Below are positions 3,371 to 32,790 of a stretch of 60,000 nucleotides of DNA, one piece after another. The stretch lies in contig OZ076409.1 of the NCBI GenBank assembly GCA_964187785.1, positions 6,822,001 to 6,882,000 on the forward strand. Direction: 5' to 3'. The notes under the pieces were generated by a model that made no database searches, was not told where the DNA came from, and worked only from the letters and a program-made list of their open reading frames with translations. The position numbers were made by a program, and so were the translations under genes. The DNA comes from Amphiscolops sp. MND2022. Lineage: Eukaryota. Position 1 is the stretch's first letter. Each line of letters starts with the position of its first letter.

Positions 3371-3557
3371 CTCGTCATCTTCAAAATTTAGAATTTCTTC
3401 GACTTGAAGCAATGAGATAAGACATTAGCAGCTTCTAAACTTGCGTAGTATAGACTATTGTAGATAGGCTTGAAAAAACTATCGAAATTCCTGGTATTTT
3501 TAGTCGACGCTTCCATAGAAAACGCAGACTATACTGGTGGATTTCGTAAAGACCAGT

Positions 3558-4115
3558 TTAGTCACTGTAAGAGCCACGTCCCGTGGTGTCTCTCAAATCA
3601 CCAACGGACCGCGAGTCCTTTTTCAATAATTTTGTTTTCAAGCCGGATGAAATTTCCCTATTTTCCTGACTGCTAGGGGACATGCTAGCCTCAGTGTCCC
3701 TGTTCCCAGAGGAAGACATTGAACTCACAATATTTTGAATCTCTGGTAGCACCTTTTCTGATATGGCAGTACTGATTGCCCTATTTATTTGACTATGTAC
3801 CATGGCCATCATGGAATCCATTTCTTGAGACAGTCTAAGATTAAATTCATTTGAGAAAGTTTCAAAAGACTGCCTGACATCGTTCTGCCTGTATTCACTA
3901 TTCTCATGGGAGAAGTTTCTATATTCATCCCTTTGGTACAGATTAGCCTCACTGTCACTACGAACTGAAGATTGTTCAATTGCTTCAGTTAATTCTCTCT
4001 CTATGGGATTTTCACTCCCATTACCTAACATTACGTCCAAGTTGTCCATGTCGGACATCATGTCCATTTCTCTAGACTTTCTAGTTTTCGCCTTTTGACG
4101 TCTCGTAGAAGGCAT
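3558..4115 (-). CDS. Copy of the Gag N-terminus carried in the 3' LTR (frame intact, runs off the LTR end)
   Basis: MPSTRRQKAK...RGSY matches the N-terminal Gag encoded in the 5' LTR and stops just beyond the element boundary. Confidence 0.7.
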   Translation of the reverse strand: MPSTRRQKAKTRKSREMDMMSDMDNLDVMLGNGSENPIERELTEAIEQSSVRSDSEANLYQRDEYRNFSHENSEYRQNDVRQSFETFSNEFNLRLSQEMDSMMAMVHSQINRAISTAISEKVLPEIQNIVSSMSSSGNRDTEASMSPSSQENREISSGLKTKLLKKDSRSVGDLRDTTGRGSYSD

Positions 4116-5310
4116 GAGAGATTGTTGCAAGAGGAAAGAATTTAAATTGAAATCTTTAAGCTTGCAAATTAAAATTGTATTCGGTATTATAACAGCGAAC
4201 TTGACTGTGACTATTCGTATGAAGATTATGTCCCCAGGACCACGAGTCCCGGTTATTTATAATCAACTAAACATGACATGCACAAAAGTGGTAGTCATCA
4301 GTCTAATTTTAGCAACAGGTATTCTAAAAATAGACACAACATACAACGTGTCTTTACAAATATATTATCGTAATACTAAAATTAGCAACAGGTATGACGT
4401 AATTGATTCACGTGCTTCTACATATATGAAGTAGTTTCGTTCAAAGATGCACATGTGCCCCTTCAGGCCATTCAATTAAGTTTCAGTAGCAACACTTCAT
4501 GTAAAACAATACATACTAGATCATATGAAATAAATACATGCAAAGATGGTATGTGAACATTGAGCTGTCCTTTATGGCCTTTTAAGATACAAACAGCTCG
4601 TCTTGACTTTCTATCCAGGAAGTTCTGGAAAATAAGAGAATACAAAAGAGGGGGGGAAAAGGACTAATGGTCCTTTTGTAAACAAGGTGACAGATCTCCA
4701 ATCAGAGTAAATATACCGCTTCTGAGATAGTACATTATCAATTTCAATATACGCACTTCTTTTAATCTAGTTTGGACTCAGTGTCCACGCGTCCCTATAT
4801 AGTACAAGAGTAGCGTCGTTGTGGTGGCGAGTGGCCCTTGAGTCCTTTAATTTAGAATACAGCACAAAAGCGAGCAAATGAACAATGCACTGTGATTGGT
4901 TGAGAAATTGGATGGACAGCGCGTCTAGCGAGACAGGAAAGGAAACATTTGAACTCGTTTCCTTTACCTGTACGCCTTGGTGTCCAATTTCTCAGCCGTG
5001 GTATATATCTATCACTGTTATACATGTATTAATACACTATATTCAATTTTCAGCTACATACTTTACATGGTTAATTCCGGATAATTATTCCAAAGCGTTT
5101 CAAATTTCATTAATATAAAAGCCCCGAATAAAATGATATACTTACATAAACATATGCGAAATCAATCACAATAAGATAAGTCTATAGTTTGTCTTCTTAG
5201 ACTTTTGGACTAATAGTCCATTTCTCAGTTCATCGGGAGGGTACCAGGGAGAGTATTGTAGTTGTAGCCGACTGAGTACCAATTGCCATCGCAGGCGGCA
5301 GCCCGCGACA
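3566..5310 (-). repeat. 3' LTR (1745 bp)
   Basis: Direct repeat of 17640-19383 with about 10 differences by eye. Termini TGT...ACA. Confidence 0.97.
4774..4900 (-). promoter_or_regulatory. Putative LTR promoter (CCAAT and TATA); the twin lies at ~18847-18973 in the 5' LTR
   Basis: Minus strand CCAATCA at ~4893-4899 and TATATAG at ~4795-4801, upstream of the gag ATG. Confidence 0.45.
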
Positions 5311-6043
5311 CTCCCCCTGGCATAAGTAGAAAGGCGTTTGCGTTCATGCCATCTAGGAATGCTCTCCTCCTTGCCTGAGTCTCAGCTAAAGTCTCTCCTA
5401 CAGTTACTGTCCTGTCCAGATATTCGTTGACGGTCTCTTCTTGAATTTGTCTGACTGATTTCCCGCATACCACGCAGTCTGAGTAGTTGACTAAGGAGGG
5501 TGGCTCAGCAAGGACCATCTCGTCGAAATGACTTGCCACCGCTTCCATTGACGTGTTCATGGATGATGGTGAATCGTCATGAGGCTCACATGGGTATTGT
5601 AGACCTCTGTCCTGTTCAGGCGGAGACAGCGGGGTGTCCACCTGCGGTACTAGATTTCGGCATATATTTATGGGGTGATTAGATTTGATCCTGTTGTCCC
5701 GACTTACAGGCCCATTTCCCCTTGCCAAGTTGAAGTACTTCTCCCCAAAGGTAGGAAATGGTGGCACATTTGGCCTGGGTGTCACAGGTCTTTTCTGCTT
5801 TTGACCGGCTGAAGTTGAAGGAATTGATATGGGCTCCGCAAGTTGTCTCTCAATGCATTTGGCCATGAGTCTAATCTCGTCTGATTCGTCTTCGGACGAC
5901 AGGTACAAGTCTTCCACAGACCACCCACAATTCGAGTCCATCGCTTCCTCTTCGTCGCTAGAGATGTATATGATTGCCGGTTCCCCTTCTGATCTTGCTG
6001 CTCCGATGAAGTCCATCGGGAAAGTCTCGGAGATGTCTGACAT
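5225..6043 (-). CDS. Accessory ORF (272 aa) overlapping the PPT and 3' LTR; acidic SIM-like N-terminus and a CxxC motif
   Basis: Uninterrupted ATG ORF with IIYISSDEEE and CVVCGKSV...VNEYLD. Codons for PGGVS span the PPT/LTR junction. Confidence 0.7.
   Translation of the reverse strand: MSDISETFPMDFIGAARSEGEPAIIYISSDEEEAMDSNCGWSVEDLYLSSEDESDEIRLMAKCIERQLAEPISIPSTSAGQKQKRPVTPRPNVPPFPTFGEKYFNLARGNGPVSRDNRIKSNHPINICRNLVPQVDTPLSPPEQDRGLQYPCEPHDDSPSSMNTSMEAVASHFDEMVLAEPPSLVNYSDCVVCGKSVRQIQEETVNEYLDRTVTVGETLAETQARRRAFLDGMNANAFLLMPGGVSRAAACDGNWYSVGYNYNTLPGTLPMN
5311..5318 (-). promoter_or_regulatory. Polypurine tract
   Basis: Minus strand AGGGGGAG immediately before the TG of the 3' LTR. Confidence 0.85.
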
Positions 6044-7318: not shown

Positions 7319-10300
7319 ATGTCGTCAGAGAACGTTGTTGAAGAAGCTACTACCATACCTCCTGGCACAGAGGGACAAGAACAGTCAGCAAATCCCCTCC
7401 CTACCGTCGTCAGCTCGACACAAGTCATTCCCCAGGAGACTTTAACCCCCAGTCCATCAACAGAAGAGAGCGTCAGTGCATATGTAGAGCGCACATTACA
7501 AGAATTAGGGCCCCAACATGAAGTTTGCTTCAACCCGACCATTGAGGCCGAATCGACAGAGCCAACTCCGGAACAGACTATACCAAAGGCATCTGTCTCG
7601 GATGCAATCGACAAGCTCATTGAAGGGAATGAGGGCCAGCCAGACGTATTAGTGGAGACTGAAACTCATAAAGAAGAAATGAGTGAAGAGGGCCAATTTA
7701 AGCTCAAAGCAGACTACTTCCAAACTGATACTAGCTCGGTAGAGGAGCTCTACGATAGTGCCGGGGCGGATACCACGACTCGTAAGCTCACATTTATAAC
7801 TTCTGGGGTTGCTGATCCAGAGGAGGAGGGACAAGAAGATCTGAATACAGGCCGTCTAGCTGAGACATCCAGTGTTGTTACTCGCGTACGACAATCGAAG
7901 GAAAAGACTGGCCTTACTGTCCCTGGTCGAGCATTGCTTAAGAAGTATTTCAATGAGGCCCCACCGGTTCACTTGCCTGTTGGGCACCGAACCCTGGCTC
8001 TTAGTGAGCCACAAGTCCATGCATTACTCAAGGTTGTCTCAGATGAAGCCGTTTCGTCGTCATTGCACACGATGCATTCACTGGTCAATGAAGCTCTCAA
8101 AGCCGGCAGTAGGATGAACAGGGAATGGGCTGTACCCGGAGGCTCTCGGGGTCCCCGTACAAATTCTGAGAGCTCGGCAGAAGACACATCCCGGGGCGGA
8201 CACACTACAGATGACTATACAAGTGGGGCTTTAAGTTCCGATGACGATTTCATCACCCGGCGACCCACACTTCCCCAAGTGTCGACGGACAATCAGGCTA
8301 CTTCGACTGAGGCAGTTACGTCCAGTGAAATGATCCCTAGTCCGGGGTTTACTGCCTCTGACTACAGGCCGTTATCCCAATTGTGTGCCCCCCAATCACC
8401 CGAGGGTCCCAAAAGACCCGTTCGAAAACGCAGGAAGGTGGCTGGATCTACAGGAAAAGTCATGAAAGAAGCCTATTTCAAAGGCATAAAATGGACCAAA
8501 ACCTTCGTGACCGGCCCCTTGGACCCAGAGCACAATAAACACAAATTTTATTGCCAAATCTGCAAGTCCAATATCTCTATGTTCTCAAAAGGGGCCAGGG
8601 AAATCGTGAGGCACTACCAGTCAGAGTCGCACCTTCGAAAAGACCAGCGCTGGAGGTACGAACACCTACGGCTTGTGGACCCGGTGACTGGCCAAGTGAG
8701 ACACGAAGTCCGGGGCAAAGACGGACGAGTCCTTACGCCAGTTGAGTTGGAGAGGGAAAAACCCCTTTTTGAGAACGCCGTTTTAGTTGACATAGGGGAC
8801 AAGCACCCCTTTTACGACGACTACATTGCCGGAACAACCGCTACGCCCAGCTCTGAAGAAATTAGAATTTGTACTCAGATTTCCCTGGTTGGCCACTTCG
8901 TCCCTCAGTGCGGAGACGTCCTGTTACTCCAGACTTTGTGGAACCAGATTGGCATAGCAGCTAACTACAAGGAACCATTTTCACCTCTCGAGTGGGGCGC
9001 TACCACTTTGACCGTAAGTATTCTTTCCTTTCTGACTTCGTCATCGTCGTAAGGTTTCCAATTGTCGTCGTCTCATTTAGTCCTTTATATTTCAGACTAT
9101 CTTTCACCACATTTTCCTCTGCGGAATGAGCGACAATTGTGTCAATCCGTTTCTGGAAGGCAGACACTTTGTGTACCGTTCGTCTCATGCAGTACCGCCT
9201 CGCCAGCGACCATGCCGCTGGACTGTTGACCGCAATAGCGCGCATCTTCTCATTCTGTACAGTCAGTACAGCCGCAATTGGTCAGTGTGTCTTGCTGTCC
9301 GTCGGAACTCATTCCCATTTTGGAACAGTCGGGCTTGCTAACGAAGAAAGGAATTCAATACCCATTTAGATTTGATACATTTTCTTTGCCCAAGCTCATG
9401 CATCAGAAATGGGGAAGCGTCTTCGGAGGGATCAACTTTTTCTCTCAACTCCGATTCTTAGTCACATTCGTAGATGGCTGTCAGGACGAGATCTGGGCCA
9501 CTCAGTCTCCTGAACTTGGCAAGGTAAATATAATCATATCTGTTTTGGCGGGTGGACTAATGGTCAGATTTCGCTCCCAAGTAGTTCTTTCGTTTAGGCA
9601 ATTTCAACTTGTTCTCTGGAAATCACATCAGTTCCTGCAATATGTTCCGAGCTGCTGGCGGACTGGAGGGCGGTCCATGATTATATGACCAGAGTTGCTC
9701 CGACTCAAAAAAACCAGGGAGTGAGGCATAGACCCCAAAGTTTAGAGTGGAGCATAATTGGTGATGAGTTCTTTCATCTCAAACTCGAATTCTTTGGCCG
9801 AATTGTCCGTGATTGTTAGTTTTTTCTTTTCTTTCATGGACCAATTATGTGTATAAGCATAGTTACTCACATTCAAGCTCACGTAGGGCCATTATTGTCC
9901 GAACGGACTAGGGGTCTACTCATTTATCACCAGTATATTCTCAAAAGGTTCGTTGTTTTGCAGATACCAAGTGCTTCGAGGGCAGTCTCTCTCAGCGGAA
10001 AGACTCTGGCTTCCTTACATACCGCGAGTTACGGCAGTTCGTGCGGAAGCTCTGCTACAGATCCTTGCTTCCGAAACATTTGCCTGATGAGGCCGACTGG
10101 ACTGGGCTACACTCATTACAGGGAGAGTCGCTCACTCAGCTTTCGTCACGGGATTTCCTCAATCGGTTAAAACTTAAAGGAGACCTGGACGCAGCTTGTC
10201 GGGCAAGAGCCAAACGTGAGGCCGACGATCCCCAAAGTGTATACACTGATTCTGAAGCCGCAGTTGAAGCAGTTAAGGAAGAATTTGCCTCCAAGGCTCG

Positions 10301-11117
10301 CAGTTATCTAGTTCGCCTTCTGGAACGTTTCCTTGATGACATCAGCTTCAATTCTGACATCGTTAAGGGTATGAGTTGCTTTGACCCTGTGGTCCTCCTT
10401 TCCGTGAGCTTTGATCAAGCCGCTCTTTGTTTTTCTACCCTCTATTACTCCTTCAGCTTGCGAGGATGGGTGTCCAATACTCCCGAGACTGAGGCCCGGG
10501 ATGAGTACCTTGAGTTCGTGGACTTCTTCCGTACCAAGTACCACGACTTTAAAGATGTTCCAGAAACTTTTACTGACATGATTGGGTTACTGACTCCCAT
10601 GCCTGAGTTGAGGTCCCGCCGGCACTTGTTCCATTTATTCCAGTTGAGTTGTCTTTGCTTGACTTCCCAGATTCCCAAACTGCCAGCTATCAAGTTCCAG
10701 GGCGTAAATAGCAGTGATCCTCGCTGTCGATTGTCCAGTGTCTTACTTCCTGCTCAGTCCTATTTAGCAAACGTGGTTGGGTCAGTAGCTGTATGTACAA
10801 CTGAGGCTTATTTGGAGAAATATCGCAAGCTTAAGTCCAGATTCATCAATGGGAATGTTGCAGGCGACCCCTGGGTCCACATTGACAGTTTTGGCAAGGC
10901 CAATTTCCTTAAGACTCTTATTTCCGGTCAGAAGGCTTTGAAAGATAAACCTCGCTCTGCTAGTCGGTCACCTTCGTCTTCGGTATCCAGTACTGGATGT
11001 CAGCGGCGTAATCGCAGTCCAATCAAAGATAAGAAAGGAGTGAAGTTTGGGGCTGTCTCCTTTTCTAAAGCACCCACTGCCAATGATACTCTGTTGCCCG
11101 GGAGTTCTAAAGACTAA
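7319..11117 (+). CDS. Antisense spliced gene, hAT-transposase-derived zinc-finger protein (exons 7319-9013, 9096-9523, 9598-9814, 9964-11117; exon 2 frameshifted in this copy)
   Basis: GT-AG introns with matching phases (0, 0, 1). BED-like finger CQIC...RHYQSESH, NLS KRPVRKRRK, and hAT-like segments LLADWRAVHDYM, LKLEFFGRIV and SDIVKGMSCFDP. Confidence 0.7.
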
Positions 11118-11331
11118 ATGTACATAGAGTACATTTGTTTCATATTCTGTCAACTTGTATTTATCATATTATCTCGTTTGTTGAAATTTCTTGAGTTTAT
11201 TTGTAGTATTTCTTGATGTCTAGTCTTCTTGATTTTTGTTTTCATTTGTATCAGTTGGGAAGTCCAGTGAAAAAATAGTAAGAAAATCAAGTAGTCTAAA
11301 AGGCTATCTGGACGTTAATTTACATATCTAG

Positions 11332-14300
11332 TTAATATCTGTATTCGTCAGTGAAGTTGGGGGTTGGGTTAGGTCGAAGATTGTATTTCCCTCCTCTAGG
11401 GCTAGAGTTTTCTTCATTTTTTCCATTTTCCGATATTCCGGGCACGGTAATATCTGCGCCCCTTTTTGGAACGTTTCCGTCATCATTTAATTCATTAGTG
11501 ACGTCATTTTCATTTTCCGTCCCAGTAGTCGATTCATGTGGAGGGGACGGCGCGTCACGGCTGCTAGCCGGTCTCGGCCTTATTTCATTCTCGTTGACGT
11601 CATTTGCATTTTCCGTCCCAGTAGTCGATTCATGTGGAGGGGACGACGCGTCACGGCTGCTAGCCAGTCTCGGCCTTATTTCATTCTCGTTGACGTCATT
11701 TTCATTCATTGTCTCGCTGCTGTCATTCTCGGTGACGTAATAGTCGACTTCACCATTCGTGGCGTCCTGCGGCAGACGCGTGGCCGTGTCTGGCCAATCA
11801 TTTTTCTTCGGCTCGAACAGCTCGTATTCAAAGTCTGCTTCCCATGAAATGGTATACAAATCGTCTTGCGGTATTATTATTTCTTCATCAGGCTGTAATT
11901 TTTCTTCTTTGTATTTGTCTTCTAATGGAGTATTAGGGACAAATTTTTTGAGCCTTATCCGGTGCAAGATTTGCGTTTTATTCGTATTTAAACGACGCAC
12001 TATATAATTGTTATTTGGTAGAGTTTTTTGAACGACAAAAGGACCAATCCATCGGAAGTCCCTGAATGGTATTTTAGATCCTTGACTATCTGCTTTCGGT
12101 TGGAGAACAAAACAGTAGTCTTTCTCCTGTAGCGGAGCCGCCTTGGCCTTGCGGTCGTAGTACTCCTTGTACTTTAAAAACGACTGCATAATATTCTTTT
12201 TAGTTTGATAAATGAGGATTTGCGTCCTCTGCTGCAATTCTTCCGCGAATTCAGTCGTTGGTAGGAAATTTTTGTTAGGATTATTCCCAAATTTGTGATC
12301 CAGGACGTTATAGGGAATTCGGCCATGAAAGACTTTGCTAGGCTCACAACCAATACTAGCATGGTAAGTGGTGTTATAGTTAAGCACAGCTAATGGTAAA
12401 AATTTGTGCCATTGACGACGGTATTCCCCTGAGGCCATCTTTAGGTTGGTTTTTAAAGAGGCGTGTGTCCTTTCGAGTTTACCAATAGTTTGCGGATGTT
12501 TAGTAGTGGCACACTTCAATGTGATCCCCAGTATTGCAGTAATTTCTTCTAAAATTTTTGATGTAAATGCGGATCCCTTGTCCGTGATGAGTGTTGTTGG
12601 CAAATACGAATGTTTCGTCATGATGTCAATTATCACCTTGGCTACGTTTGCGGCTGTTGCCTCAATTAGTGGGTAGGCGAATAAATATCTTGAAAATACA
12701 TCTATTGCCGTCATCACCGTTTGGTATCCGCCGCTAGTTGGTAAATTTGGCAGTAAATCGATTTGCATGGCATCTTCTGGGCCTAGGTCCCATTCAGGTA
12801 AATTCAGTAATTCTGGGGTGATTACCGTGTTGGGGACCCTTTTGTCCTTGGCACATGTTTCGCAGCCTTCTACCCATTTTTTGACGTGTTTTGCAATTCC
12901 GGGGTAGTAGTATTTTTGGCGAATTTCCTGTAGCATCTTAGAAATGCCCGGGTGTCTATGTGCCGTGCCATGTATTGCTTGTAATAATTCTTTGAGCAAA
13001 TGCTTTGGCAATAAGATTTGATGATATTTGACCTGTCCGGTTTCATCGTAGTTTTGCCGCGTCACTATCTCGTCTTTGAGGACTATTCGATCTATGTTGT
13101 TCAAGTAATACTTGTATCGAATATCCTGTTGAAGGATTTCTTCAGAGTATTCTTCTTTTTGAAGTTTCGCCCTTAATTGGAGGAGAATCGGGTCTCTGGA
13201 TTGTTCAAGCAGTATCTGAATTGTTCTTCTTAATTTCTGCGTGAAATTAGTAATCTCTTCGACGGTATTTTCTGATATAGCGTCAATTTGGATTACTGTC
13301 TCAGGGACTATGAGGCTCTTTTTGGAATGTTGTTTCCGTTTCCAAATCTGTTCTTCTGTTTCGTTGTCCTCCTCAGTGAAGAAAATTTGCTCTTCCTCTG
13401 ACACGCCGGCTGATTGGACATTGACCTCGATCGGTCTAGTTTCTACGTCCTCTCGTATTTTCAGGACCAACTTTTCAGTAGGGTCCATTTCCATACGGGA
13501 CAAGTAGTCTGCCGCTGTATTGTTTTTGCCTGGAATGTGAGCTATAATGAAGTTGAATTGAATGACAAAATCACAAGCATTCCAGAGAGGCGGTGGAATT
13601 ATCTTTGTCTGGAAGAACCTTGTGACCGATTTGTTATCTGTAAGGATAATCACGGGTTGAGGTGTTCCCCAGAAAATTTGTCCAAACTCCTTGAATGCAT
13701 AATATATAGCTAGGAATTCCTTTGCATATATCGACATTTTGAGTTGAGAAGGCGTGAAAGTTTTGGATCCATATGCAATCGGCGCATAGGACTTTTTAAC
13801 AGAAGTGTATTTCTGATTTGGGTCGTCTTCGGTCAATATGGCGTAACCGGCTGCTGTAAAACTTGCGTCAGTCATGAGGACCAGTTGTTTGTTCGGCAGA
13901 GGTTGTTTCAACGCCAATTGACTACATCGGTCTAAATCGCGGTTGATCGCATTAAATTGTTCAACTAGCTCTTGCGTGACTAGTACTTTTTCATCCTTTT
14001 TGAGCAATTGGAAGAAGGGAACTAGTTTTTCGGATAGCCTTGGAATATAATTCCTGTAGTAATTGAGGAAACCAAGATAGCGTTGTAAGGCCTTCTTGGA
14101 CTTTGGGAATTTCGTCTTTTCCAATAAATTGACGATTCTTTCTTTTTGGGGCTTTACGCCTTCAGGTGTAATGGTTCTCCCAAGAAAGTCAATTTCAGTA
14201 GCGCCGAAATGGCACTTGTGCATGGACAATTTCAATCCTGCTTCTCTGATACATTGGAACGTTGCTCTTAAGTTGACGATAAGCTGGTCAGCGTCTGTCG

Positions 14301-16503
14301 CCGCGACACCGATATCGTCCACATATTGAGCACATTGGTCTGCTTTTATAACACGATCCAGGTATTCCCTCATGAAACTGGAGAAGGCCGACAGGGCTCT
14401 ACTGAGTCCTTGGGCCAATCTTCTATATGCAAATGTCCTGCTGGCGAAGTTGAAAGCTAGCATTTCAATCGATTTCTGGTCTGCCATAGGAAGGCAATGA
14501 TAAGCTTGGGAACAGTCGAGTTTGCAAAAGAGCTTTTTGCCTGCCATATGTTGCGCCGCATCCGTCAAGGTGCTGACTGGGTGGTTGTTATTGACGTAGT
14601 CATCTGAAATCAGATTATTGATTTTCCGTAAATCCAACAACAGTCTCAGTTTTCCATTGGGTTTTTTCTGCGCAAATATTGGACTGGCGTACTTCGAGAA
14701 TGGTAATGTTGTTATAATCCCATATTTATGGAGTAATGCCAGTTCGACCAATATGTCCTCTTTGAGGTTGACCGGAGTAGGTAGGCTCTGACTGTAGGCA
14801 GGCGACTCGTCCTTTGGGGTCAGTTTGACCGTAAATTCCTCATTGACGCCAATATCAAATCTGTGGCGTGCAAAGATGTCATGGAATTCCACTAATAGAG
14901 TTTCTATTTGTCTGATTTCATGTTGTTGTAACATTGAGTCCTTCCAATCAAAATTGCTGAGGAATTTTCGACGAGATTCCGCATCGTCGTGCGGGTTGAG
15001 TTGTTCTAAACTTTGCAGGTTTCGTAATTCTTTGAGAATTCTTTGTTGTATTGGGGTATGGGTCGTTTCGTCCCCTGGGTTTTCAGGCGTCGGGAACCAA
15101 TATTGTTCGTATTGGTCATTATTTCTGTTAGCTTTAAGAAGGCTACTAATATAATAAATAGCGTCGTCTTCATTTTCATTCAGTAAGTGCCAGGTGGACA
15201 CTGGGTCTATTGGCCTGACGTGTTTCATCTGTTCAGGGGTCATCACTGAAAAGTTTGCAATGTGCATCCCTTTCTTTATTTTATAGGGTTGATCAGTGAA
15301 ATTGTTGACGTGTATTCTCGTAGCCCCTTCATGTAGTGTGACTATGGCGGCACAGAAGGTTATGTCGCCTTCCTCGTGCAGAAGATCGCTGGGTTGCAAT
15401 ATGCCCGTAACTGCATTTTCTGCGTAAATTTGTGATTGAATGGGTATGACCACATGGTCATTGGGCGGAATTGTGACATCCTCAGGATTGAGGATGGGTT
15501 CCAAAACATTTGAGTATTTATGGTCAGCCGTCTTGAGTTGCATCGAGAAGTAGGGAAAGTTGAGTATACCTTGGCGCATGTCCAGGACAGTGTGGTTCCT
15601 TTGAAGGAATATTAGTCCAATTATGGGGCTTGACAGTTTTTCCATTACAATGAAAATTTCGTGAAATTCTATGTCGCCCACTTCGAATTTTAGTTCGACT
15701 GTGCTCTTTGGAGTTTCTAAGTCTCCATTTGCGACCATTATTTGGAAGGATGGGGCAGGACCTTCTTTTACAATGGATTGGGGGGCCAACAGGCGTATTT
15801 TCCTGAGGTCTGCCTCCGGGATTGCACTGGAGTGGGCTCCAGTGTCTATCAGGCCATCTAGAGTTAATTCCCCAAAGTCCATTGGGAAATAGAGCATTCG
15901 TCGTTTGAATTAAAGTCCAAGGTTTGTTGAAAGGGGAACGTATGGTAATTCTCCTTCCTTGGTCACTAGGAGGTGTAATAAGGCTGTCTCATCTAAAAGA
16001 CTATTAGGAGCCTTGTGGTCCTCCTGTGTGTGTATGGCGTCTACTTCTTGTATAGTTGCCTCAAAGTTCGGCTGCCAAAGATCAATGAGGGCCCGAGACA
16101 GTGTGTTGTCTTCGATGTCTGGGTCGTCCTCGTCGTCAGTTGGAGGGTAATATTCGTTTCGAAATTGTAAATTTATTTTGTCATATAGTTTGTCGTCCCA
16201 GTACGGGTCTTTGCCATACTCGGGGTCATAGTATTGAGGGTTATAATCTTCGACAGTTTGTAAGGGTCTAAATTGAGTTTCGGAGTCGTTGTAATTGCTA
16301 TTCCGTCGATATAGGTATGGGTGATCACTGTGAATGATATATTGAGTTTCTTTGCGGGCGTCGGCCATCTGCTGCTGCCAGACAGTCGATGGCATCCCTG
16401 TGGTGTCGTTTTGAGTTTGTTTATATGTAATGTTTGCAGGGTCAGATATGACATACTGTCGTACTGACATCTTGTTACATATTTGGAGTCGTGGCGAAAT
16501 TAG
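11332..16503 (-). CDS. pol: Pol polyprotein (protease, RT, RNase H, integrase) with an in-frame nonsense codon at 15910-15912
   Basis: LIDTGA protease, QYVDD RT, TDAS/TDNK RNase H, H-H-C-C plus D,D,E integrase (IDLL, TDKG, LER), GPF motif. ORFs 15910-16470 and 11332-15897 share one frame. Confidence 0.96.
11499..11708 (-). repeat. 96-bp in-frame tandem duplication in the integrase C-terminal tail
   Basis: TGACGTCATT recurs at 11499, 11595 and 11691. The peptide NDVNENEIRPR.ASSRDA.SPPHESTTGTEN occurs twice. Confidence 0.9.
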
Positions 16504-18188
16504 TTTTTTGAGTCCGTTTTACGTGAGTTTGATTGGCTTGAAGATGCAGTTTCAGGGTTAGTTGACTTTTTGGACGATTTTTCATCGCCAGAGGTGTCAT
16601 CAGCCTTATCCTCAGGACGTGTCCTTTTGGGTCGTAAATGTGCTCCAGCCCCTTTCCAGCATCTTTCAACAGGGTGATTTTTCTTTCCGCAAGTAGGGCA
16701 TTCTGGGTATGTAGGACGTTGGGGCTTTTTGCCATTTTTGTCCTCCAGTTCTTTCTTCTTCTTCAATTTAGGGCAGCTCTTATAGAAGTGGCCTGTGGCT
16801 TTACAATAAGAGCATTGTGCGTCCTTTTTAGTATTTATGCCATTAGAGAGCAAATTGTTGTTACTGGAGGACGCAGAGGCCATTGTAGCGATTGGCAAAT
16901 CGTCTTGACTCTTCTAATGCGTTGAGTTCAAGCTCTCTTTCAAGATGAGCGACGATTTCTTCATATGTCCCGTTCTCCAGGCGGGCCATATTGACAGATC
17001 GTTTCAATTTTGGAGGCAGTTTTGCGTATAATAAGCTGTCGATCATGCTTTTTGCATTTTCGCCGAAAGCTTTTTCTGCCCCCTGGTTCAGTTCTTCCAA
17101 GAAATCCGGCAATTTCATGGTATTCGGATCGAAAGTCAGCCGATGCCATTTGTGTTTTGCCGTTGCTTGGGATTCCGGTTTGACGTATTTTCTCCGGAAT
17201 ATGATTAGCACATCCTCGAGTGTTTGGCGGTTAATTGAGTTTATGTTCCTGAAGGTCTGCAGGGCCCCTTTTCTGAGCAATGAGTGAAAATGGTTTATTT
17301 TCATTTGCTCTGTCATGGCCGGTTGCATTTTGATCATTGTGTGGAACAAATCTTCAAAGAGTTCGAATTTCTCACTCTTTCCGTCAAACGTCATAGGTGT
17401 CGTTTGGACAGGTCGGATAGTCATCGTTTGGGGTTTATTTTGCAAATTGACTAGTACATCAGCCAATCTATTGAGCGGGTCCTGAGGCGGCTCTTTGACC
17501 TCTGGTTCTGGTGCTGGCAGAGTGGTGTCCAGAGAGACATTGTGGTTAGATTGCTGTCTCTCTAGGTTCGGGATTGAGTGGATTCGTCCAGTGAGAAATT
17601 CAGGTATAGGCTGTTGGGCTTCGTTAGCTCCTGTCACCATGTAAGAGCCACGTCCCGTGGTGTCTCTCAAATCACCAACGGACCGCGAGTCCTTTTTCAA
17701 TAATTTTGTTTTCAAGCCGGATGAAATTTTATATTTTCCTGACTGCTAGGGGACATGCTAGCCTCAGTGTCCCTGTTCCCAGAGGAAGACATTGAACTCA
17801 CAATATTTTGAATCTCTGGTAGCACCTTTTCTGATATGGCAGTACTGATTGCCCTATTTATTTGACTATGTACCATGGCCATCATGGAATCCATTTCTTG
17901 AGTTAGTCTAAGATTAAATTCATTTGAGAAAGTTTCAAAAGACTGCCTGACATCGTTCTGCCTGTATTCACTATTCTCGTGGGAGAAGTTTCTATATTCA
18001 TCCCTTTGGTACAGATTAGCCTCACTGTCACTACGAACTGAAGATTGTTCAATTGCTTCAGTTAATTCTCTCTCTATGGGATTTTCACTCCCATTACCTA
18101 ACATTACGTCCAAGTTGTCCATGTCGGACATCATGTCCATTTCTCTAGACTTTCTAGTTTTCGCCTTTTGACGTCTCGTAGAAGGCAT
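16500..18188 (-). CDS. gag: Gag, broken by two 1-nt frameshifts (~17731 and ~16906)
   Basis: Three overlapping ORFs join into one protein with a capsid-like region (FDGKSEKFELFEDLF) and two CCHC knuckles, CSYCKATGHFYKSC and CPTCGKKNHPVERC. Confidence 0.9.
16503..16509 (-). promoter_or_regulatory. -1 ribosomal frameshift slippery site A AAA AAC (gag-pol)
   Basis: Minus strand TCA AAA AAC TAA ends gag. The -1 frame continues open into MSVRQYV... of pol. Confidence 0.8.
17628..17639 (-). promoter_or_regulatory. Primer-binding site TGGTGACAGGAG (tRNA-Leu-like, tentative)
   Basis: TGG directly after the CA of the 5' LTR. Complementary to a tRNA 3' end CTCCTGTCACCA. Confidence 0.8.
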
Positions 18189-19383
18189 GAGAGATTGTTG
18201 CAAGAGGAAAGAATTTAAATTGAAATCTTTAAGCTTGCAAATTAAAATTGTATTCGGTATTATAACAGCGAACTTGACTGTGACTATTCGTATGAAGATT
18301 ATGTCCCCAGGACCACGAGTCCCGGTTATTTATAATCAACTAAACATGACATGCACAAAAGTGGTAGTCATCAGTCTAATTTTAGCAACAGGTATTCTAA
18401 AAATAGACACAACTTACAACGTGTCTTTACAAATATATTATCGTAATACTAAAAATAGCAACAGGTATGACGTAATTGATTCACGTGCTTCTACATATAT
18501 GCAGTAGTTTCGTTCAAAGATGCACATGTGCCCCTTCAGGCCATTCAATTAAGTTTCAGTAGCAACACTTCATGTAAAACAATACATACTAGATCATATG
18601 AAATAAATACATGCAAAGATGGTATGTGAACATTGAGCTGTCCTTTATGGCCTTTTAAGATACAAACAGCTCGTCTTGACTTTCTATCCAGGAAGTTCTG
18701 GAAAATAAGAGAATACAAAAGAGGGGGGGAAAAGGACTAATGGTCCTTTTGTAAACAAGGTGACAGATCTCCAATCAGAGTAAATATACCGCTTCTGAGA
18801 TAGTACATTATCAATTTCAATATACGCACTTCTTTTATTCTAGTTTGGACTCAGTGTCCACGCGTCCCTATATAGTACAAGAGTAGCGTCGTTGTGGTGG
18901 CGAGTGGCCCTTGAGTCCTTTAATTTAGAATACAGCACAAAAGCGAGCAAATGAACAATGCACTGTGATTGGTTGAGAAATTGGATGGACAGCGCGTCTA
19001 GCGAGACAGGAAAGGAAACATTTGAACTCGTTTCCTTTACCTGTACGCCTTGGTGTCCAATTTCTCAGCCGTGGTATATATCTATCACTGTTATACATGT
19101 ATTAATACACTATATTCAATTTTCAGCTACATACTTTACATGGTTAATTCCGGATAATTATTCCAAAGCGTTTCAAATTTCATTAAAATAAAAGCCCCGA
19201 ATAAAATGATATACTTACATAAACATATGCGAAATCAATCACAATAAGATAAGTCTATAGTTTGTCTTCTTAGACTTTTGGACTAATAGTCCATTTCTCA
19301 GTTCATCGGGAGGGTACCAGGGAGAGTATTGTAGTTGTAGCCGACTGAGTACCAATTGCCATCGCAGGCGGCAGCCCGCGACA
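17640..19383 (-). repeat. 5' LTR (1744 bp)
   Basis: Direct repeat of 3566-5310, followed on the minus strand by the PBS. Confidence 0.97.
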
Positions 19384-19739
19384 GTCACACATTTTTACAA
19401 ACACTTCAATATCTACAAACTTTTACAGGAATGAATCTACAAACTCTTATAGGCAAGAATGAGTGTCACTTGACCAAGATGAGTGTATTGCTGGGAATTA
19501 CATGCACGTGGGTTCGAATCCTGCGCTGGACCAGAACTTTCTAAGCTGCAATAGTAGATGGGAGACCAAAGGGTCCCCTTCACTTTGGAAATTAATATCG
19601 GCTTGGAAGAATCATTTTGCATGCGTAAAATGCCTCCTTATGTGTTTTTTAACATTGAGACTTTGTTCCGAACGGACATTCAAAAAAAAACATTTTGCTC
19701 TTTTTGAACCCTGAGCGGCTTGGATACCGATCTGTTTGA

Positions 19740-19975
19740 ACACTCGGAGAAAAAAAGAATTTGAATGGTCTTTTAGCAATAGCTTACTGTCGAACTATCC
19801 TCTAACGACATTCTTTGAGAAACACCATCGTCAGAACATACAATTGGATATATACGCCTGACCTAATGCCCAATGACTTGAAATCTTTGTCAGAATCGTC
19901 AGTTAAAAGTGTCATAACAAACATTGCTATCAATTTTATCTCAAACAATTCTGAAGTCTTCAATGTTTACTCTAG
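19740..19975 (+). pseudogene. Decayed 3' fragment of a LINE ORF2
   Basis: LRNTIVRTYNWIYTPDLMPND resembles VEHTLIKGYNWLLQTDLMPGN at the end of the LINE at 52222-52974. Confidence 0.5.
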
Positions 19976-20099
19976 TGTTTCGGATTTCCCATGTGGCTCA
20001 TTACTTATCCAATGAATCAAAATAGGTTTCACCTGGGAAATGAGTTGATTCTCAGTGCGAAAATAAAATTTCGAGCTGAAAAACTTTTTTCGCCCTTTT

Positions 20100-20446: not shown

Positions 20447-23400
20447 GTCTTTACCTGATCTTCGATGTCTCGTGTCATCGGTTCCTGGACATTTTCACGA
20501 CGATAGCTGTGTACCTGCACTTGTTCGGGGTCATCGTAATTCCCGCCTTCTGCTGTGTGTCGTTCGTCTGGTTCAGGGATCACGAAGACCAGGACGAAGA
20601 TGACACAGAGGTCAGGGGTCAACTTCGGAAGAACGGAATAAATTTAACTGAATAAGATAGAACGCTTTGTGATTGGTGGAGAACACCCCCTTCATATCAA
20701 TTTGAGACATTTGATTGGTTTAGATCTAACTCTGTTAGACCTTATTCCGCTTTCTAGTCAACTTCTACGAAACTTTGATAATTATAATAAACTGAAATAA
20801 AAACGAAAACGTGTTACGGTGATTTTATGACCGGATATCAAAATGAAGTTTTCACACATTGATTTTAGCATGTTTAGCGAAACTAAAACGTTGTTATAAA
20901 AATTTTTGAAATTAACTGTGATTCCTGGAACAAAATAACCAATAACACAGCAACCATGTGTTTATTCCGGTTTCGTTGGACAACGGTAAAAAAGGACATC
21001 TGCCAGAATTAAAATTGTATTTATTTTCAAAGATACTTTTTAGGATTGAAACTTTTCTTATCAGCCGGCCTCAAACCATTTGAACATAAATTTAAAATGC
21101 TAATTGGAATCCGGTATTTTGTGTTTCTTTGGAACAAACACACCAAAAAACGCGTCGCAGTGATGTTTTTCGAAAACGGCGCGTGGTGATATTTCGAATA
21201 TGGATGACTTCTGACCGTGGTACCATCTAACGAATTTGGCGTCTTCGGCACCGTGAGACGAAATTTATTATTGTCTACACATTCCTGTTAATTTTTTTTC
21301 GCATTTTCTCATAAACTCTCCAGCGATGATTTTGCCAGTCTTTTTTGGAATTAAAGAATGGAGAGACTAAGTTATATTGTGATTTTAGGTCAAGATCGGG
21401 TAAAAACAGTTATTACATAATTTTAGGTCAAAGTGGGGTCAAATCGTCATTTTGTGACTTCATAGGTTAAGATCGGGTCAAGTTTCTCCCCCGAGAAGTG
21501 CTCTTACCCCACCTACCCGGTGCCTGGATTGCGTGACTCAGGGTCCAAATATGGGGGCAGTAGCAATGGTGGACCCAGCAACCAATCAAAACGCGTTCCT
21601 GTTGCCTCAGAAAACGAGACAAACCCGTACACACATCAAATTAGTAGCTTGACTTACGTGGTAGGTTTCTAAATAGGTTTCTAAAAAATAGCTACCAAAG
21701 AACTCTGTGATTGAATAAATCACTTGAAAAAGTGTTTTTAGTTGGCGCTTTTTCCTTTTAAGGAAAAATGCCCGACACTTACAGAGACCTTTTTTTCACA
21801 CTCATTGGTCCACTTTCTACAGAAACTACTAAAACTACTCAGGCCAAGTCCGGCCAATGCAAACTTACTGCAAAGGGCCCCCTTTCATTTTTTTACTTTT
21901 TTAACCTAACCTACAAAACCGGACGAGACTTAAGGGCTCCCCTCTTGATTTTTTTCGGCACAAACTAGTGCCGAAAAAACTGAAAAAGGAAACCCTTTGG
22001 TCTTGAAAACGCTTTTTCCTAACCGAAATATTTAAACGATCAAAGATTCCAAAAAAAAGTACAATTCCAAAAATAATACTCAAATTCGTTTCCAATTCAA
22101 GTATGATTGGTAGACCTTTCACTGTAACGTCCAGCAGTCGGCGAACGAAAGTTACAAAATTTCGATGAAAAATTCGAAATGTGCGATTCGAAATGGCCGA
22201 CCCGACAGGTCGACCGAAAATCGTAGAAGATTATTATTCACTTAATATAATGTACTTTGGCTGAACACCATTTTTGGACCTCGGAGGTATGTAGGAAAAA
22301 CGCAGAAATCCTAGGATTTGTTTTTACAGGCTTGTGGGACGTGTCCCGACTTTGAGAGTGTCGGCACGTCGCCTCGGAGCTCTAACTGAGGAGCCTCCTT
22401 AGACGAATGGAAAAGTTCCTTTCAGGAGACCATTTTGGGATTAAAAACTAATCTCTAGGTTGTAGTAAGGCACTGGTCTCCTGTTCAAGCAATCTAGGCA
22501 TTGTCCCACTTCTATGATGTGTGTCACTAGCCTGACGTTACACATTATCCCTTTAACTACATCCTCTAGACACTTTAATTTTAATCTATAGTAGACCTTT
22601 TAACTATATCACGTAATGAACACAAAGTACAGTTTTTCATTCAAGTTTGTTTACTAACAAATTGTTAGTACTCTAGACCGAAACTCGGCAGTGGCTAGGA
22701 CGAATGAACTGTATAACAAGGAGTACCCTCCATTCAATTTTAATTTTAGCCTCCCTCGTGTTTGGATGGACCCAGACCAGGCAGAAGTATGAGTTTGGGA
22801 AGCAGCGGGGAATTCTATGGAGGCAATATCCCAGCAGTTGAGGAAACTCCCGCCAAAAGCCCCGCCCGTTCCAAGAGCCAGCTGGCATTGAGACCTCGCT
22901 CCAAAACCGAGTCTCAAAAACCGCAACGAGTGGCTCTTTCGAGTCAACATTCTGGGACGAGAACTTACGAGAACATTCAACGCGGAGGCGCAAATCCCAC
23001 TGCGAGCAAGGGAAAGTCGGAATTCGTTCACGTGAGAACTCCTGACAAGTCTATCCGCTTCAAAATTCCTTCGGAACGACCACAAGGTAAGCCAACAGGA
23101 CCATTTCTCTCACCCCCAAACCCAAAAATATTTATTCATCTCTTTAAACAATATTGTTTTCCCAGAAAAAAATTATGTAAATAAAAAAAATCAACCATAA
23201 ATTTAAAAAAAAATGGATTTGATTGATTTTTAAAAAAATTGGATTTTAATCCATTCATGATCACTGTTTTATTGCCAGGGTATGATGCGAGTTTTGTGCC
23301 ACCGGAGAACAGAAATCGCATTCCAGTCACCAACTACCAGACTGGCATTCTCAAAGACTCCGCCCACTCCTCTTCCTCCTCAGTTCTCCCCATGACGTCA

Positions 23401-24332: not shown

Positions 24333-27300
24333 TGTAACGACCGGCTAGCGACGCACATCTAGGAAGAGGGACAATGCCTAGGGTGCTTAAACAGGAGACC
24401 GTTGTCTTACTACATCCCTAGGCACTAGTTTTTGTTCCCAACATGGTCTCCAAGGGGGACTTTTCTTGCGTCTAAGGAGGCTCCTCTAGTTAGAGCTCCG
24501 AGGCAACGCGCCGACACTCTCAAAGTCCGGACACGCCCCACAAGCCTGTAAAAATGAATCCTAGGTTCCTAACACATACATTCCTGCCACCTCCTACATA
24601 CTTCCGAGGTCCAAAAAGGTGTCTAACTGAAATACATTATATTTGGGTAATAAGGACTAAAATGGAGACCTAGTAGGTCAAACATCATCCAAATACTCTG
24701 TAAACGGTGACAAAACACGAGGATAAGCCCCTATAACATTACAGTTTAGGATTGGTCATCAGTTTGGCCTCTGGCATCATTCCTCATCTTCGGGGCAAAG
24801 TGGTCTCATTTGGCATTTTTCTGCCTAAACACTGTCTTTTTGCTGTCAGATGGCACAATTCCTGATTCTCTCGCCTTCTGGGTGATGACATGTCTGATAT
24901 TCACGTTACTGGGTGGGGTGGGGGTGCTTTTTTCCTATTTTGCTTCCTCTACGGTTTTCGTACCTGTCAGGTCTGCCATCTTGAATGTGCTTGTTTGATA
25001 CCGCCCATTTCGAATTTTTGATCGAAATTTTCAAAAACTTCTGCAACGTCCCTTGCCTGACGTTACATCCTCCCCGGGCCGTTCACATCCCCCGACAGAG
25101 GAAGTTCACATCTTGGTTGCCACCATCCAGTGATCCAGTGATACTGTTGCAACATGGTACGTCAGGAATCTAAATGGAAGTCTATGCCCAAAAACACGTT
25201 ACTGCACAAAAACATGAATTTTTGCCAGCCTAGCGGGCTTCATTGGATTCCACACCCACTGACTCCTAGCAATGGAATACTATTAGCAACTTTAGACACT
25301 TAGCATTGTATTCAAAACGTTTTCAAACTTTTTTTCGCACCAATATGACTAGCACTTTGTGTTACCGCATCTGTATTAGTATAAAAAGCACTTATCAGAA
25401 CATATTTGGCATTGGCCGGGGGCCCACGTGATAGATTAGGTTTTACAAAGTGCACGATAGCACTTAAAAGCGAAAAACAAAAGTAACAGCTGTGGTCTTG
25501 CAAAAGGTTCGTAGTTCATGGTCAACAGAAACTGCAAAATAAATAGCACCAATGGGCAAAACAGAGCTCAAAAATTCAAAATATCATCAAAAGTGAGGAT
25601 CCATTCTGTCTATTGTGTTAGCAGTGTATGTTCAGATAAGGTATCGTCTAGGTAGTACAAGCACCAGTGTATATGCAAGAGATGGAAATAAACTGCTTCT
25701 CAAAAGGATGACAATGTCAATAGTGATAACAGAGCAAATCCAATAAAGGTCGAAAATCAGGCATTATAGATCATGAAAACAGTCTTTGGCGTTAAAAACA
25801 AGTTCCAGAGCAGTCATTCTAGTTCTAAAAGAACGGCCGTTGGCCAAGCAGTTCTCAGAGCTTCGAAGCTCCAGGTGTTTCATCATGCTTGGTGTTGATT
25901 TCTCTCGGGAGAGTACGTGTACTCCCCGGGCCAATGTCTTGTCCGTTGCTTTCACATCGACATGGTTCACACAACTGTGGTGTCGAGAACCGAGGTACAC
26001 CTCACGCATGAATCGAGCAACGAACACTGATTTTTTGAGAAACCTGCTTGGCTACAGATATTAGATTGTCTGAAAAGTCAGTTTGTCACTCATGATGCCC
26101 TGTCTCTGGAGAGCACCAGTAATGACGTAAAAGTGATCAGGGACTGGGAATAGGCCTTGGGGTTAGTAGGAGGGAGGACACTGAGTTTGAAGTAATTTTT
26201 TGCCTTTATGACTGTAGTACGATCAGAAAAAGCGTTCTTTTTCAACTATGGTGTTCACTACTGTACTTGTCGTTCTGTTTTGAGACGCACTGCGTTCAAA
26301 GTCTGAACCTACAAAAAAGCCTATAAACAAGCTCCAGCACCCACAGGGTACACAGGGCACCAAGCAAGCGTGTTCACAACGGATAACTTACACTTAGGTG
26401 ACTTTGATAGCAGTCAGGAGGCGAGTTTCGATTTTTGGTTTTTCACCTCTATGTGTCGTAGACCGTTTTCTCTGAGACCCGAGATCTTAGGGTCGGTTTA
26501 GCACTAATCAAAGTGATTCAGCAGGACCTGGTGAGCGTGCCTAGTTTGCTATCGAGGTCGTTTGGGCCCTCACTGGCACGTACATTGACAAAAAGTGTGC
26601 GATTTGTCTCACAAAATTGCAAAATCAACAATTTGTTCGTCAACAGGCACCTCCAGGGAAAGTCAAATTCAGTTCTAGCGCTGCTAGCGACCTGAAAAGT
26701 TCACACCGTTTATTATACCAGCTAAATAGTTTGGAATTAACCTCCGATTGCCCCAAAACTGACTCTGTGAGTGTTGCGGTCACCTCACAATGTTCACTGA
26801 AAAATTGACTAAGTCGTGAAATTCACAAAAATTGGTCAAACTCGCCTTCTAGGCGTCCTAACTACCTGCAATTTTGTATGCGAGCGTAGATTATGCCCTC
26901 GTAGAAAAAACTACGGCGGCGAGCTGCTTGGAGAATTACCTGGTGATTCGGTTCGACAAAACCTTGATGTACCTGAGGTACCATTTGTTCGGGTCAAATT
27001 TCACAAAAATGTCAATTTCTCAGCTTTGGCTAGCCACTGGCTGCTCAAATTGGACAAATCGCCGGAAAACTTAGGTGCTGGGATACCTTGGAGATATCGC
27101 GCTAGGCTCAACTAAATTTCCGTTTTTTTTGCAACTTTGTGCACTTTTTGAGCAAAACTGTGGCCAAGATTTTTCCACGAGTATCAACAGTAGCGTCACC
27201 AAAATTACGCTACTAGCGCAATTTTTTACGCTCTATACGATGGTGCAAGCCGATTTTGGCTCTTCTTGTTAGGAGAGATTTCCACTCATCGAAAAAACGT

Positions 27301-29364
27301 GGTTGCCGAATTCCCAAAATGTCGCGAAAATAGCACGTTTTTGACTATTTCTCGGCAACCACTGCTTAGAATCACTCACGGTTTTCTGCGTTAGCAATCT
27401 TACACTTTATTATAACAAAAATTAGGCAAGCGAAACCTGGTAGATTCCAAACAGGGTCTCTTAAAAAATTTTCAGATTGCACTTTTACACTATCGGAACA
27501 GTACTGAAAATACGTATTTTCGCCAAGAACTTGCTGTTTCTTTGTTCTCAGGCGTTTCCATTGGTTCTATCAGCAACGTAGGAAGGTGTGACACTTTTAT
27601 TTAGGGGACTGGGTGATTTCAAAATTTAGTTCAGTTTCAATAACACTCAGGCTTATGGGGGTCCTCCACTCAGGTCTATTTGTAACAAAAGAGAAGCACC
27701 GATAAAGTCTCAATTTATATGGGGGATCGCTAGAAACCGTCTTGGTAGTAGTGTTTCGTACTATTACGCTCTACAATAAAACTTTTGGGCCCCTCGAAAA
27801 GCTTGCGGACTGATGCCCAAGGCTTCGCCCTGGCCAAATTTGGTCGAAACGGCCAAATTTGACGATTTTTAAACAAAAATTGCTAAGTTTTTCGCGTTTT
27901 TCAGAATCTTAGTCCAACAAAAGAATTTGTCCCCGACCTATTAGGTCTGTTGGAACGTTTTTCTAATATACCTACTGGCCGTACTCAATTCTACAAATTT
28001 TTGACTGTCAAAATTGGACAAATTGAGATTTGAGCCATGAATGGTGTTATTTTCGAGGTTTTCGCGCTCAAATTTTTCAACAACTGGTTTGAACCACCTT
28101 TGGGTATTTTTTCTAGTTAGTTTATGTGGGGTTGGGCCTGGGAATACGCTTTTTGGGCTGTTAAATACAAAGGGAAACGAAATAACCCAGCTAACGTCGT
28201 AGATTCGGCAGTTGGAAGGGACGCAGAGGCTATGAAGTGAAAGACCTTACGTCTTGCGCTCAGCTAGCTGGGGCCTTCACAGGTTGTCCTCGCAGTCCCT
28301 GTACCTTGCCAATTAGCTGAAAAGAAGCTGAAAACCCGTTAAAACACGTTCCGGATAGGCCGGAATAGTTCTTTCAGCAAGTACGGTTAAGGCAAAAGGG
28401 GTACACCGTCTGAAACTGTATATTTCGAGCTTTTGACCGCCTAAACATGCATGAAACGCAGGAAAATTACAAATACGAAGCCCAAATGGCCTGGCAAAGG
28501 CAATGAAAACAGTCTAGGACCCTCCAGAAAGCTTCTCCTAGATGCGGACCTAACAGGGCCGAAAAGCAGGAGTTGCTCCTAGTCTGATGCGGAAATGAAA
28601 AATCTCCCCATGTGGTCGCCATAAAAACTATTCCAGATGTAACGAGCTGCTAGAGACGCACATCTAGGAAGAGGGACAATGCCTATGGTGCTTAAACAGG
28701 AGACCGTTGTCTTACTACATTCCTAGGCACTAGTTTTTGTTCCCAAAATGGTCTCCAAGGGGGACTTTTCTTGCGTCTAAGGAGGCTCCTCTAGTTAGAG
28801 CTCCGAGGCAACGCGCCGACACTCTCAAAGTCCGGACACGCCCCACATGCCTGTAAAAATGAATCCTAGGTTCATAACACATACATTCCTGCCACCTTCT
28901 ACATACTTCCGAGGTCCAAAAAGGTGTCTAACTGAAATACATTATATTTGGGTAATAAGGACTAAAATGGAGACCTAGTAGGTCAAACATCATCCAAATA
29001 CTCTGTAAACGATGACAAAACACGAGGATAAGCCCCTATAACATTACAGTTTAGGATTGGTCATCAGTTTGGCCTCTGGCATCATTCCTCATCTTCGGGG
29101 CAAAGTGGTCTCATTTGGCATTTTTCTGCCTAAACACTGTCTTTTTGCTGTCAGATGGCCAATTCCTGATTCTCTCGCCTTCTGGGTTATGACATGTCTG
29201 ATATTCACGTTACTGGGTGGTGTGCTTTTTTCCAATTTTGCTTCCTCTACGATTTTCGTACCTGTCAGGTCGGCCATCTTGAATGTGCTTGTTTGATACC
29301 GCCCATTTCGAATTTTTGATCGAAATTTTCAAAAACTTCTGCAACGTCCCTTTTTGACGTTACA
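24333..29364 (-). mobile_element. Non-autonomous LTR element (LARD-like); LTRs at 24333-25067 and 28638-29364
   Basis: Two ~730-bp direct repeats with TGTAACG...CGTTACA ends. PPT GGGGAGGA (minus strand, 25068-25075). Possible PBS TGGCGACCACA (28611-28621). No recognisable gag/pol. Flanks ctc/ctc. Confidence 0.85.
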
Positions 29365-32341: not shown

Positions 32342-32790
32342 GGGAGCGGGACAAAACAGTCGGTTTTCAAAATAGGACAAAACAGCCGATTTTCAAAATA
32401 GGACAAAACATCCGATTTTAAAACAGTACAAAATCGCCGATTGGTAGAAAGAAAGATCGCCGATTTTGTGAATGCGTAAGATTAACAGTCAATAAAATCA
32501 TTATCATAACGTAGTCAGCTATGTTCACATACCCCTAGTGCTCTAAATGCAGGAGCGGAGCGACGTGCCATATGGCCATGCCTCAAAGTTGCTACTTGGC
32601 GAAGGAAGCGAAGCGACCGAGCCATACAACAAATATGGCTCTTAACAAAACCTCTTAAATAAATCAAGTTCCACACATATTGGCTGCAACAGCACTCATT
32701 TTGTTCCGTTTTGACAATCGGCTGTTTTGTCTCGTTTTGTAAATCGGCTGTTTTTTCTCGTTTTAAAATCGGCTGTTTTGTCGCATATCC
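32342..32790. mobile_element. Second copy of the 26-bp-arm foldback MITE
   Basis: Same arms and same central core as 2915-3370. Confidence 0.8.

Follow-up and report, generated by a model that had tools for sequence, protein, structure and literature searches.

Judged from the predicted proteins of its relatives, the N-terminal third of Gag encoded within the LTR is a real, conserved and unusual architecture, which is seen here in a broken copy. This copy lies in the window, i.e., the whole 60,000-nt stretch of DNA analyzed, and very probably belongs to a Gypsy-type family whose ~562-aa Gag, encoded by a single ORF, would start about 550 nt before the LTR end. The first-pass annotation had proposed such a start, with Gag being read through the terminal CA of the LTR and the PBS. 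This applied to the relatives, in which the LTR-initiated frame was open through the PBS, but not to the 5′ LTR of the window copy.

Self-comparison combined with exact mapping of the ends delimited a 15,818-nt LTR retrotransposon on the minus strand of the window (Table 1), the two LTRs of which were direct repeats with 99.2% identity over 1755 aligned bases. About a dozen differences between them most likely arose after insertion and were therefore not used in the test of selection described below. With regard to classification, the structural features of Ty3/Gypsy elements (Metaviridae) were present, namely the LTR ends, the 5-nt TSD (GTGAC), the PBS and the polypurine tract, and so were the corresponding order of pol domains in Pfam (protease, residues 17–104; RT, 415–580; RNase H, 646–770; integrase, 968–1139) and a Gag with capsid and CCHC nucleocapsid, recognized by sequence matches only. 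The capsid-like domain corresponded to a Pfam DUF1759 match (about 17388–16996) that begins at Gag residue ~268, the CCHC knuckle matches in Pfam were weak, and the Atlas neighbors of Gag at 0.92–0.94 bear Ty3_capsid, Retrotrans_gag and zf-CCHC. At the 3′ end of gag, the heptamer A AAA AAC, which we take to be a −1 frameshift motif, overlaps the pol frame and suggests −1 frameshifting at this point. All 120 RT relatives listed were unnamed. No tRNA genes were found within the 60,000-nt window, and no Rfam matches were found in its positions 3000–20000.

Because of the DUF1759 match we also considered BEL/Pao, whose members are characterized by a Peptidase_A17 protease, a single gag-pol ORF and three knuckles. 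This affiliation was rejected, since no Peptidase_A17 match was obtained, gag and pol are in separate frames and two knuckles are present. Ty1/Copia was rejected as well, given that the integrase lies downstream of RNase H and not ahead of RT. A dUTPase domain was also observed between protease and RT (pol residues 142–224; window ~15240–15490, minus strand). According to the available text of the respective papers, a dUTPase occupies the same place in planarian Burro (PMC6431247) and in the bdelloid elements Juno, Vesta and TelKA (PMC5408684), which share with the element described here TG...CA LTRs, a PBS, a polypurine tract, a CCHC gag, the order PR-dUTPase-RT-RH-IN and extra ORFs behind pol; they differ in that an LTR-encoded Gag was not found in the available text of either source.

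Table 1. Features of the LTR retrotransposon, with positions in the window.
Feature	Position	Strand	Remarks
5′ LTR	17640..19383	-	1744 nt; TGT...ACA ends
3′ LTR	3566..5310	-	1745 nt; TGT...ACA ends
TSD GTGAC, upstream copy	19384..19388	-	
TSD GTGAC, downstream copy	3561..3565	-	
LTR-encoded N-terminal third of Gag, 5′ LTR	17640..18188	-	Frame broken by a frameshift near 17730
Same Gag frame, 3′ LTR	3558..4115	-	Open over 183 codons and past the LTR end; 184 aa
Conserved block 1, residues 1–35	18084..18188	-	Basic N-terminus
Conserved block 2, residues 76–135	17784..17963	-	Long helix; predicted parallel in-register homo-oligomer
PBS	17622..17639	-	Starts with TGG, immediately behind the terminal CA; M-V-T-G-A-N in the Gag frame
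Internal part of gag	16500..17639	-	Capsid-like domain and two CCHC knuckles; break near 16900
pol frame	11332..16518	-	Protease, dUTPase, RT, RNase H, integrase
Polypurine tract	5311..5322	-	Precedes the 3′ LTR
Candidate promoter TATAAAT	18328..18334	-	No ATG between promoter and Gag ATG
Alternative promoter/polyA pair	18834..18874	-	TATATAG at 18874, AATAAA at 18839
Candidate polyA signal AATAAA	17857..17862	-	Within the codons of Q109-I110-N111

The LTR holds 183 Gag codons plus one base, which amounts to about 32% of its length. As noted in the first-pass annotation, the start MPSTRRQKAK was observed at 18188 on the minus strand, inside the 1744-nt 5′ LTR, and the junction reads TAC A/TG GTG ACA GGA (the slash marking the LTR end), so that the terminal CA and the PBS fall within the Gag frame Y-M-V-T-G. 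That the frame of this ATG crosses the boundary of the 5′ LTR proved incorrect for the window copy: owing to the frameshift near 17730, it is out of frame with the junction and stops at 17714–17712 after 158 aa, and the Y-M-V-T-G frame forms a separate ORF (17745–16861). Likewise, the ~183 Gag codons attributed to both LTRs were found open in the 3′ LTR but broken in the 5′ LTR. In the 3′ LTR, the frame runs from 4115 to one residue into the flank, with its stop at 3560–3558. Its openness exceeds chance expectation: over the coding part of this LTR, the Gag frame contained 0 stops and the two alternative frames 11 and 26, and in the upstream 1195 nt of the same LTR, the three frames contained 26, 16 and 26 stops.

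The break in the 5′ LTR frame and a second one in gag near 16900 imply that Gag cannot be made from the window copy. Moreover, pol carries an in-frame stop at 15912–15910 that is absent from an intact 1689-aa relative. The window copy is a dead member of a Gypsy-type family, and for this reason the proposal of an LTR-encoded Gag was judged on the family.

Further frames were observed inside the element. One of 295 codons (5225–6112, minus strand; first Met at codon 24) crosses the polypurine tract and extends 86 nt into the 3′ LTR, so that the other LTR end is coding too; its product is acidic and proline-rich, with one CxxC and no Pfam match. Behind pol lie three antisense frames (7205–9052, 9239–9688 and 9912–11117, plus strand), which we take to resemble a captured, spliced BED-finger/hAT-like gene. 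The first of them contains a CxxC...HxxxxxH motif with a weak C2H2 match, and no env-typical transmembrane stretch was found in these antisense frames.

The relatives analyzed are predicted proteins. Protein searches return open frames only, so intactness is overstated, and cluster sizes (up to 168 members) do not translate into genomic copy numbers or counts of host genomes. With the 183-residue LTR peptide as query, 192 longer proteins (322–2000 aa) were retrieved. Among the 120 matches listed, the peptide was covered to 99–100%, 93 proteins were 550–575 aa long, 108 started with MPSTRRQK and 117 carried the VTG junction motif. A profile search yielded 255 matching proteins among 8000 scored candidates. 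When 50%-identity representatives were searched, 645 matches were obtained, with identity down to 37% among the 150 listed. The profile search reached six Gags of 460–575 aa that are 41–46% identical over the LTR part and have the junction, as Y-M/I-V-T-G, at residue 188. Of ten distant proteins inspected, eight formed clusters of a single member, and hence no full-length Gag was seen below 41% identity.

Both the length and the start of the LTR part were uniform in this collection. The residues ahead of the junction numbered 183 (89 proteins), 181 (61), 187 (15) or 182 (1) in 166 full-length Gags beginning at the LTR Met, i.e., the length changes were whole codons. When the 212 capsid-core proteins with either the LTR part or a start at the PBS Met were inspected, 206 began at the MPST-like Met, five at later Mets of the LTR part and one at the PBS Met; a further 13 capsid-bearing pieces had no LTR part. 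Searches for the DNA locus of a relative in metagenome contigs, genome contigs and phage records, and in viral contigs with the capsid part as query, returned none.

The junction was reached in 242 of 349 proteins examined; in 163 of them the Gag sequence continued past it, and in 79 it was replaced by an unrelated tail. The expectation that LTR ends read out into flanking DNA was borne out by these 79 relatives and by the 3′ LTR frame of the window copy; 3′ LTRs and solo LTRs are indistinguishable in protein data, and the read-out tails pool both. A promoter together with an open frame in every solo LTR, as the annotation proposed, is a prediction. The xAC A end of the LTR leaves an A as the first base of the next codon in any read-out. 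Of the 79 first tail residues, 76 belonged to the set encoded by such codons, namely I, M, T, N, K, S and R (24 of 61 codons expected; P = 3e-27), and the same set of residues was found at the next three positions in 34 of 74, 31 of 74 and 30 of 73. The three misses were P0096, P0100 and P0331, and P0256, which was counted as a match, seems to have an internal junction that was mistaken for a tail. In line with the xAC prediction, the last LTR residue among the 242 proteins was Y 204 times and H 27 times. The codon phase at the junction was kept down to 39% identity. We therefore regard the overlap as a conserved feature of the clan, not as the chance property of a single family. At the level of predicted proteins, these comparisons show that the frame, the phase and the length of the LTR-encoded part of Gag are kept across subfamilies.

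We also analyzed conservation along the LTR part. In nine high-copy representatives, the capsid region was 93–100% identical and the LTR part 42–88%, with residues 1–35 being the most conserved segment of the LTR frame (70–97% identity). In a substitution test on six close representatives, with pooled pairs whose events are not independent and a single-base expectation as the baseline, mean BLOSUM62 values were +0.57 for residues 1–35 vs −0.21 expected (P = 0.002) and +0.47 for residues 76–135 vs −0.16 expected (P = 0.013). Residues 36–75 and 136–183 did not depart from the selection-free expectation (P = 0.89 and 0.51, respectively), and the mean for the whole LTR part (−0.21) was near the neutral value of −0.23 to −0.31. 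The proposal under study depended on selection acting on this frame; at the protein level, signs of it were found in the two blocks, the linkers being neutral-looking. The rough probability of a stop-free frame was 2e-4 for the most distant pair tried, from two high-copy subfamilies, and 0.05–0.06 for three close pairs.

These results bear on the position at which Gag translation begins. Translation of Gag could start mainly at the ATG that the terminal A of the LTR forms with the PBS, yielding a 379-aa protein, with the LTR frame representing a minor longer isoform or a separate regulatory protein, a reading that we consider improbable. Such a product would keep the capsid and the zinc knuckles, given that the capsid-like domain is found from residue ~268 onwards, and in the available part of PMC10309623 most Ty3/Gypsy Gags are described as beginning with the CA domain. 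Although 167 of 171 full-length proteins have the junction Met, this residue follows automatically from CA and TGG in phase, and its conservation therefore says little; the junction Y/H-M-V-T-G is fixed by the needs of the DNA (terminal ACA, TGG of the PBS) and not necessarily by those of the protein. Furthermore, 8–14 in-frame Mets lie upstream of the junction Met in the nine subfamily representatives, and a main start at the PBS is at odds with an LTR frame that is most conserved at its very start and holds its phase with the capsid frame to such low identity. Less credible still is an untranslated by-product, i.e., DNA constrained in cis (packaging, priming, promoter) that is open and in phase by chance: half of the LTR part does have a neutral-like substitution spectrum, protein databases retain open frames and the junction residues are dictated by DNA signals, but only whole-codon indels occurred among the 166 full-length proteins, changes in the two blocks were conservative, a confident amphipathic helix with an invariant core was predicted, and the stop-free frame lies beside stop-rich alternative frames.

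With Gag starting inside the LTR, the LTR part would constitute a matrix-like front end ahead of the capsid and the zinc knuckles, in the order basic tip, variable linker, parallel coiled coil bundling Gag, second linker, capsid and knuckles. The basic tip may serve RNA, membrane or nuclear targeting; in the six relatives inspected, its first 16 residues had a net charge between +5 and +7. AlphaFold2 predicted residues 56–135 as one helix, with pLDDT 94–98 over residues 81–130 and low confidence elsewhere (mean 65.5, pTM 0.30). Three copies of residues 66–140 were predicted as a parallel in-register bundle with a score of 0.55, compared with 0.01 for the best control, in a three-copy job that lies outside the two-copy calibration, ignored the alignment and does not fix the number of chains. 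The runs shared at least 77% of contacts, with a partner pLDDT of at least 74. The closest pairs in the predicted bundle include I110-I110, I114-I114 and V122-V122, and I110, which occupies a core position, was the sole invariant column among 25 aligned relatives.

In the calibration, 21 of 30 solved microbial homodimers attained the score mark, as against 0 of 23 single chains; the corresponding figures for eukaryotes were 17 of 29 homodimers and 0 of 30 single chains. Only one of seven eukaryote pairs without an older solved relative passed, so the pass obtained here may reflect memory of coiled coils. The modelling supports self-association of residues 66–140, and we lean slightly towards a coiled-coil role of the LTR part. 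For the LTR peptide, no fold match at E ≤ 0.001 was found in PDB or BFVD and no Pfam match at the curated cut-off, and its best Atlas match was 0.76. When PDB was searched by sequence with an intact relative, nothing beyond weak matches to zinc knuckles and Gag was obtained.

Use of the Gag ATG requires that the coding part of the LTR lies in R or U5, and thus a strong-stop DNA of more than 550 nt. In the mechanism that we propose, the RNA would start upstream of this ATG, most simply behind the TATAAAT at 18334, which would give an ATG-free leader of about 115 nt, and the coding part would lie in R/U5, so that minus-strand strong-stop DNA would copy the codons into both LTRs at each replication. 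The gap between the last upstream ATG and the Gag ATG is 159 nt (chance probability 0.054). A start behind the TATATAG at 18874 would place 12 upstream ATGs ahead of Gag, a leader that would need splicing or internal entry. The 3′ LTR counterpart of the AATAAA at 18839 is ATTAAA.

In order to compare both parts of Gag, the LTR part was clustered at 88% and the next 330 residues at 95%, separately, and clusters of at least two members were considered. A single internal Gag cluster was joined to six different clusters of the LTR part and, conversely, a single cluster of the LTR part to three internal ones; P0005 and P0088 were 75% identical in the LTR part vs 99.4% internally. From these pairings, it looks as if LTR exchange, or a much faster LTR turnover, swapped the N-terminus of Gag. 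Because this domain sits in the LTR, either process would replace it as a module and leave the capsid almost unchanged. In addition, the LTR peptide was observed fused in frame to the Gag of a foreign element (913 aa) or to RNase H-integrase (645 aa) in the proteins P0116 and P0096, apparently as LTR ends inserted into other retroelements.

A 3′ or solo LTR might moreover act as a small gene for a truncated Gag with a flank-derived tail, i.e., a dominant-negative brake that rises with LTR number and is escaped by LTR exchange; this scenario is speculative and, in our opinion, rather unlikely. The truncated Gag would comprise the basic tip and the coiled coil without capsid or nucleocapsid and, if expressed, could co-assemble with full-length Gag. 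If true, LTR exchange as an escape from the brake would explain why identity among subfamilies is so much higher in the capsid (93–100%) than in the LTR part (42–88%).

Among known systems, yeast Ty1 has a coding PBS, and its GAG overlaps the LTR by about 40 nt, or some 13 codons. The family described here resembles Ty1 in both respects; Ty1, however, is Copia-type with a short overlap, whereas here the overlap comprises 550 nt, 183 codons and a whole predicted folded domain. LTR-overlapping ORFs are also found in retroviruses, such as MMTV sag and HIV nef, which lie in U3 and are read from the 3′ LTR side; a coding LTR is common to both situations, but the retroviral ORFs differ in their U3 location and do not encode Gag. 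Control of copy number by a truncated, self-encoded Gag (p22/p18) is described for Ty1 in the available parts of PMC4551931 and PMC10911583. By analogy, a truncated Gag scaling with element number could block particle assembly, although p22 is the C-terminal half produced from internal AUGs, whereas the candidate here is a predicted N-terminal third produced from LTRs. The part of PMC10309623 mentioned above also deals with C. elegans Cer1, a Gypsy element in whose Gag a large N-terminal domain precedes a CA-like one; that text does not place this domain in the LTR, and the likeness is by description only. In the literature consulted, which was accessible in part, no Gypsy element was found described in which Gag overlaps the LTR over a long distance, and the available parts of PMC11302176, PMC1142308, PMC3118150, PMC3601003, PMC7175516, PMC10085805 and PMC3630058 contained nothing bearing on an LTR-overlapping Gag.

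Other repeats were present in the window. Two 735-nt repeats (24333–25067 and 28638–29364), 96.6% identical, 4305 nt apart and with TGTAAC...GTTACA ends, are LTRs of a second family, representing either a non-coding element or solo LTRs, with no clear shared TSD; related pieces lie at 323–781 and 22236–22543 (inverted). A dispersed repeat with 26-nt tandem units and inverted arms, MITE- or foldback-like, was found at 2913–3370, 32340–32790 and 56577–56736, one copy being 200 nt from the downstream end of the Gypsy-type element. Positions 35423–43172 hold a tandem duplication with a 3.9-kb unit (96.4% identity), a partial inverted copy of which lies at 44301–45161. Furthermore, a tandem array of about 174-nt units (55039–55644) and a near-perfect palindrome (57363–57652; 140-nt arms, 99% complementary, 10-nt spacer) were observed. 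Three consecutive frames at 50322–52974 (plus strand), the middle one with an RT match (E = 7e-28), are probably a broken non-LTR retrotransposon.

This family would depart from the usual organization of LTR elements, in which the repeats are non-coding and the coding sequence is confined to the interior. A third of Gag would be copied along with the promoter, pass through strong-stop DNA and stay in any solo LTR, and the evolution of the promoter would thereby be coupled to that of Gag; read-out from the LTR would also make in-frame protein fusions easy. If LTRs of this kind are masked as non-coding, Gag would be annotated 183 residues short, and dating by LTR divergence would take in sites under protein selection. 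Finally, the family may offer a natural test of whether a truncated Gag limits copy number outside yeast.
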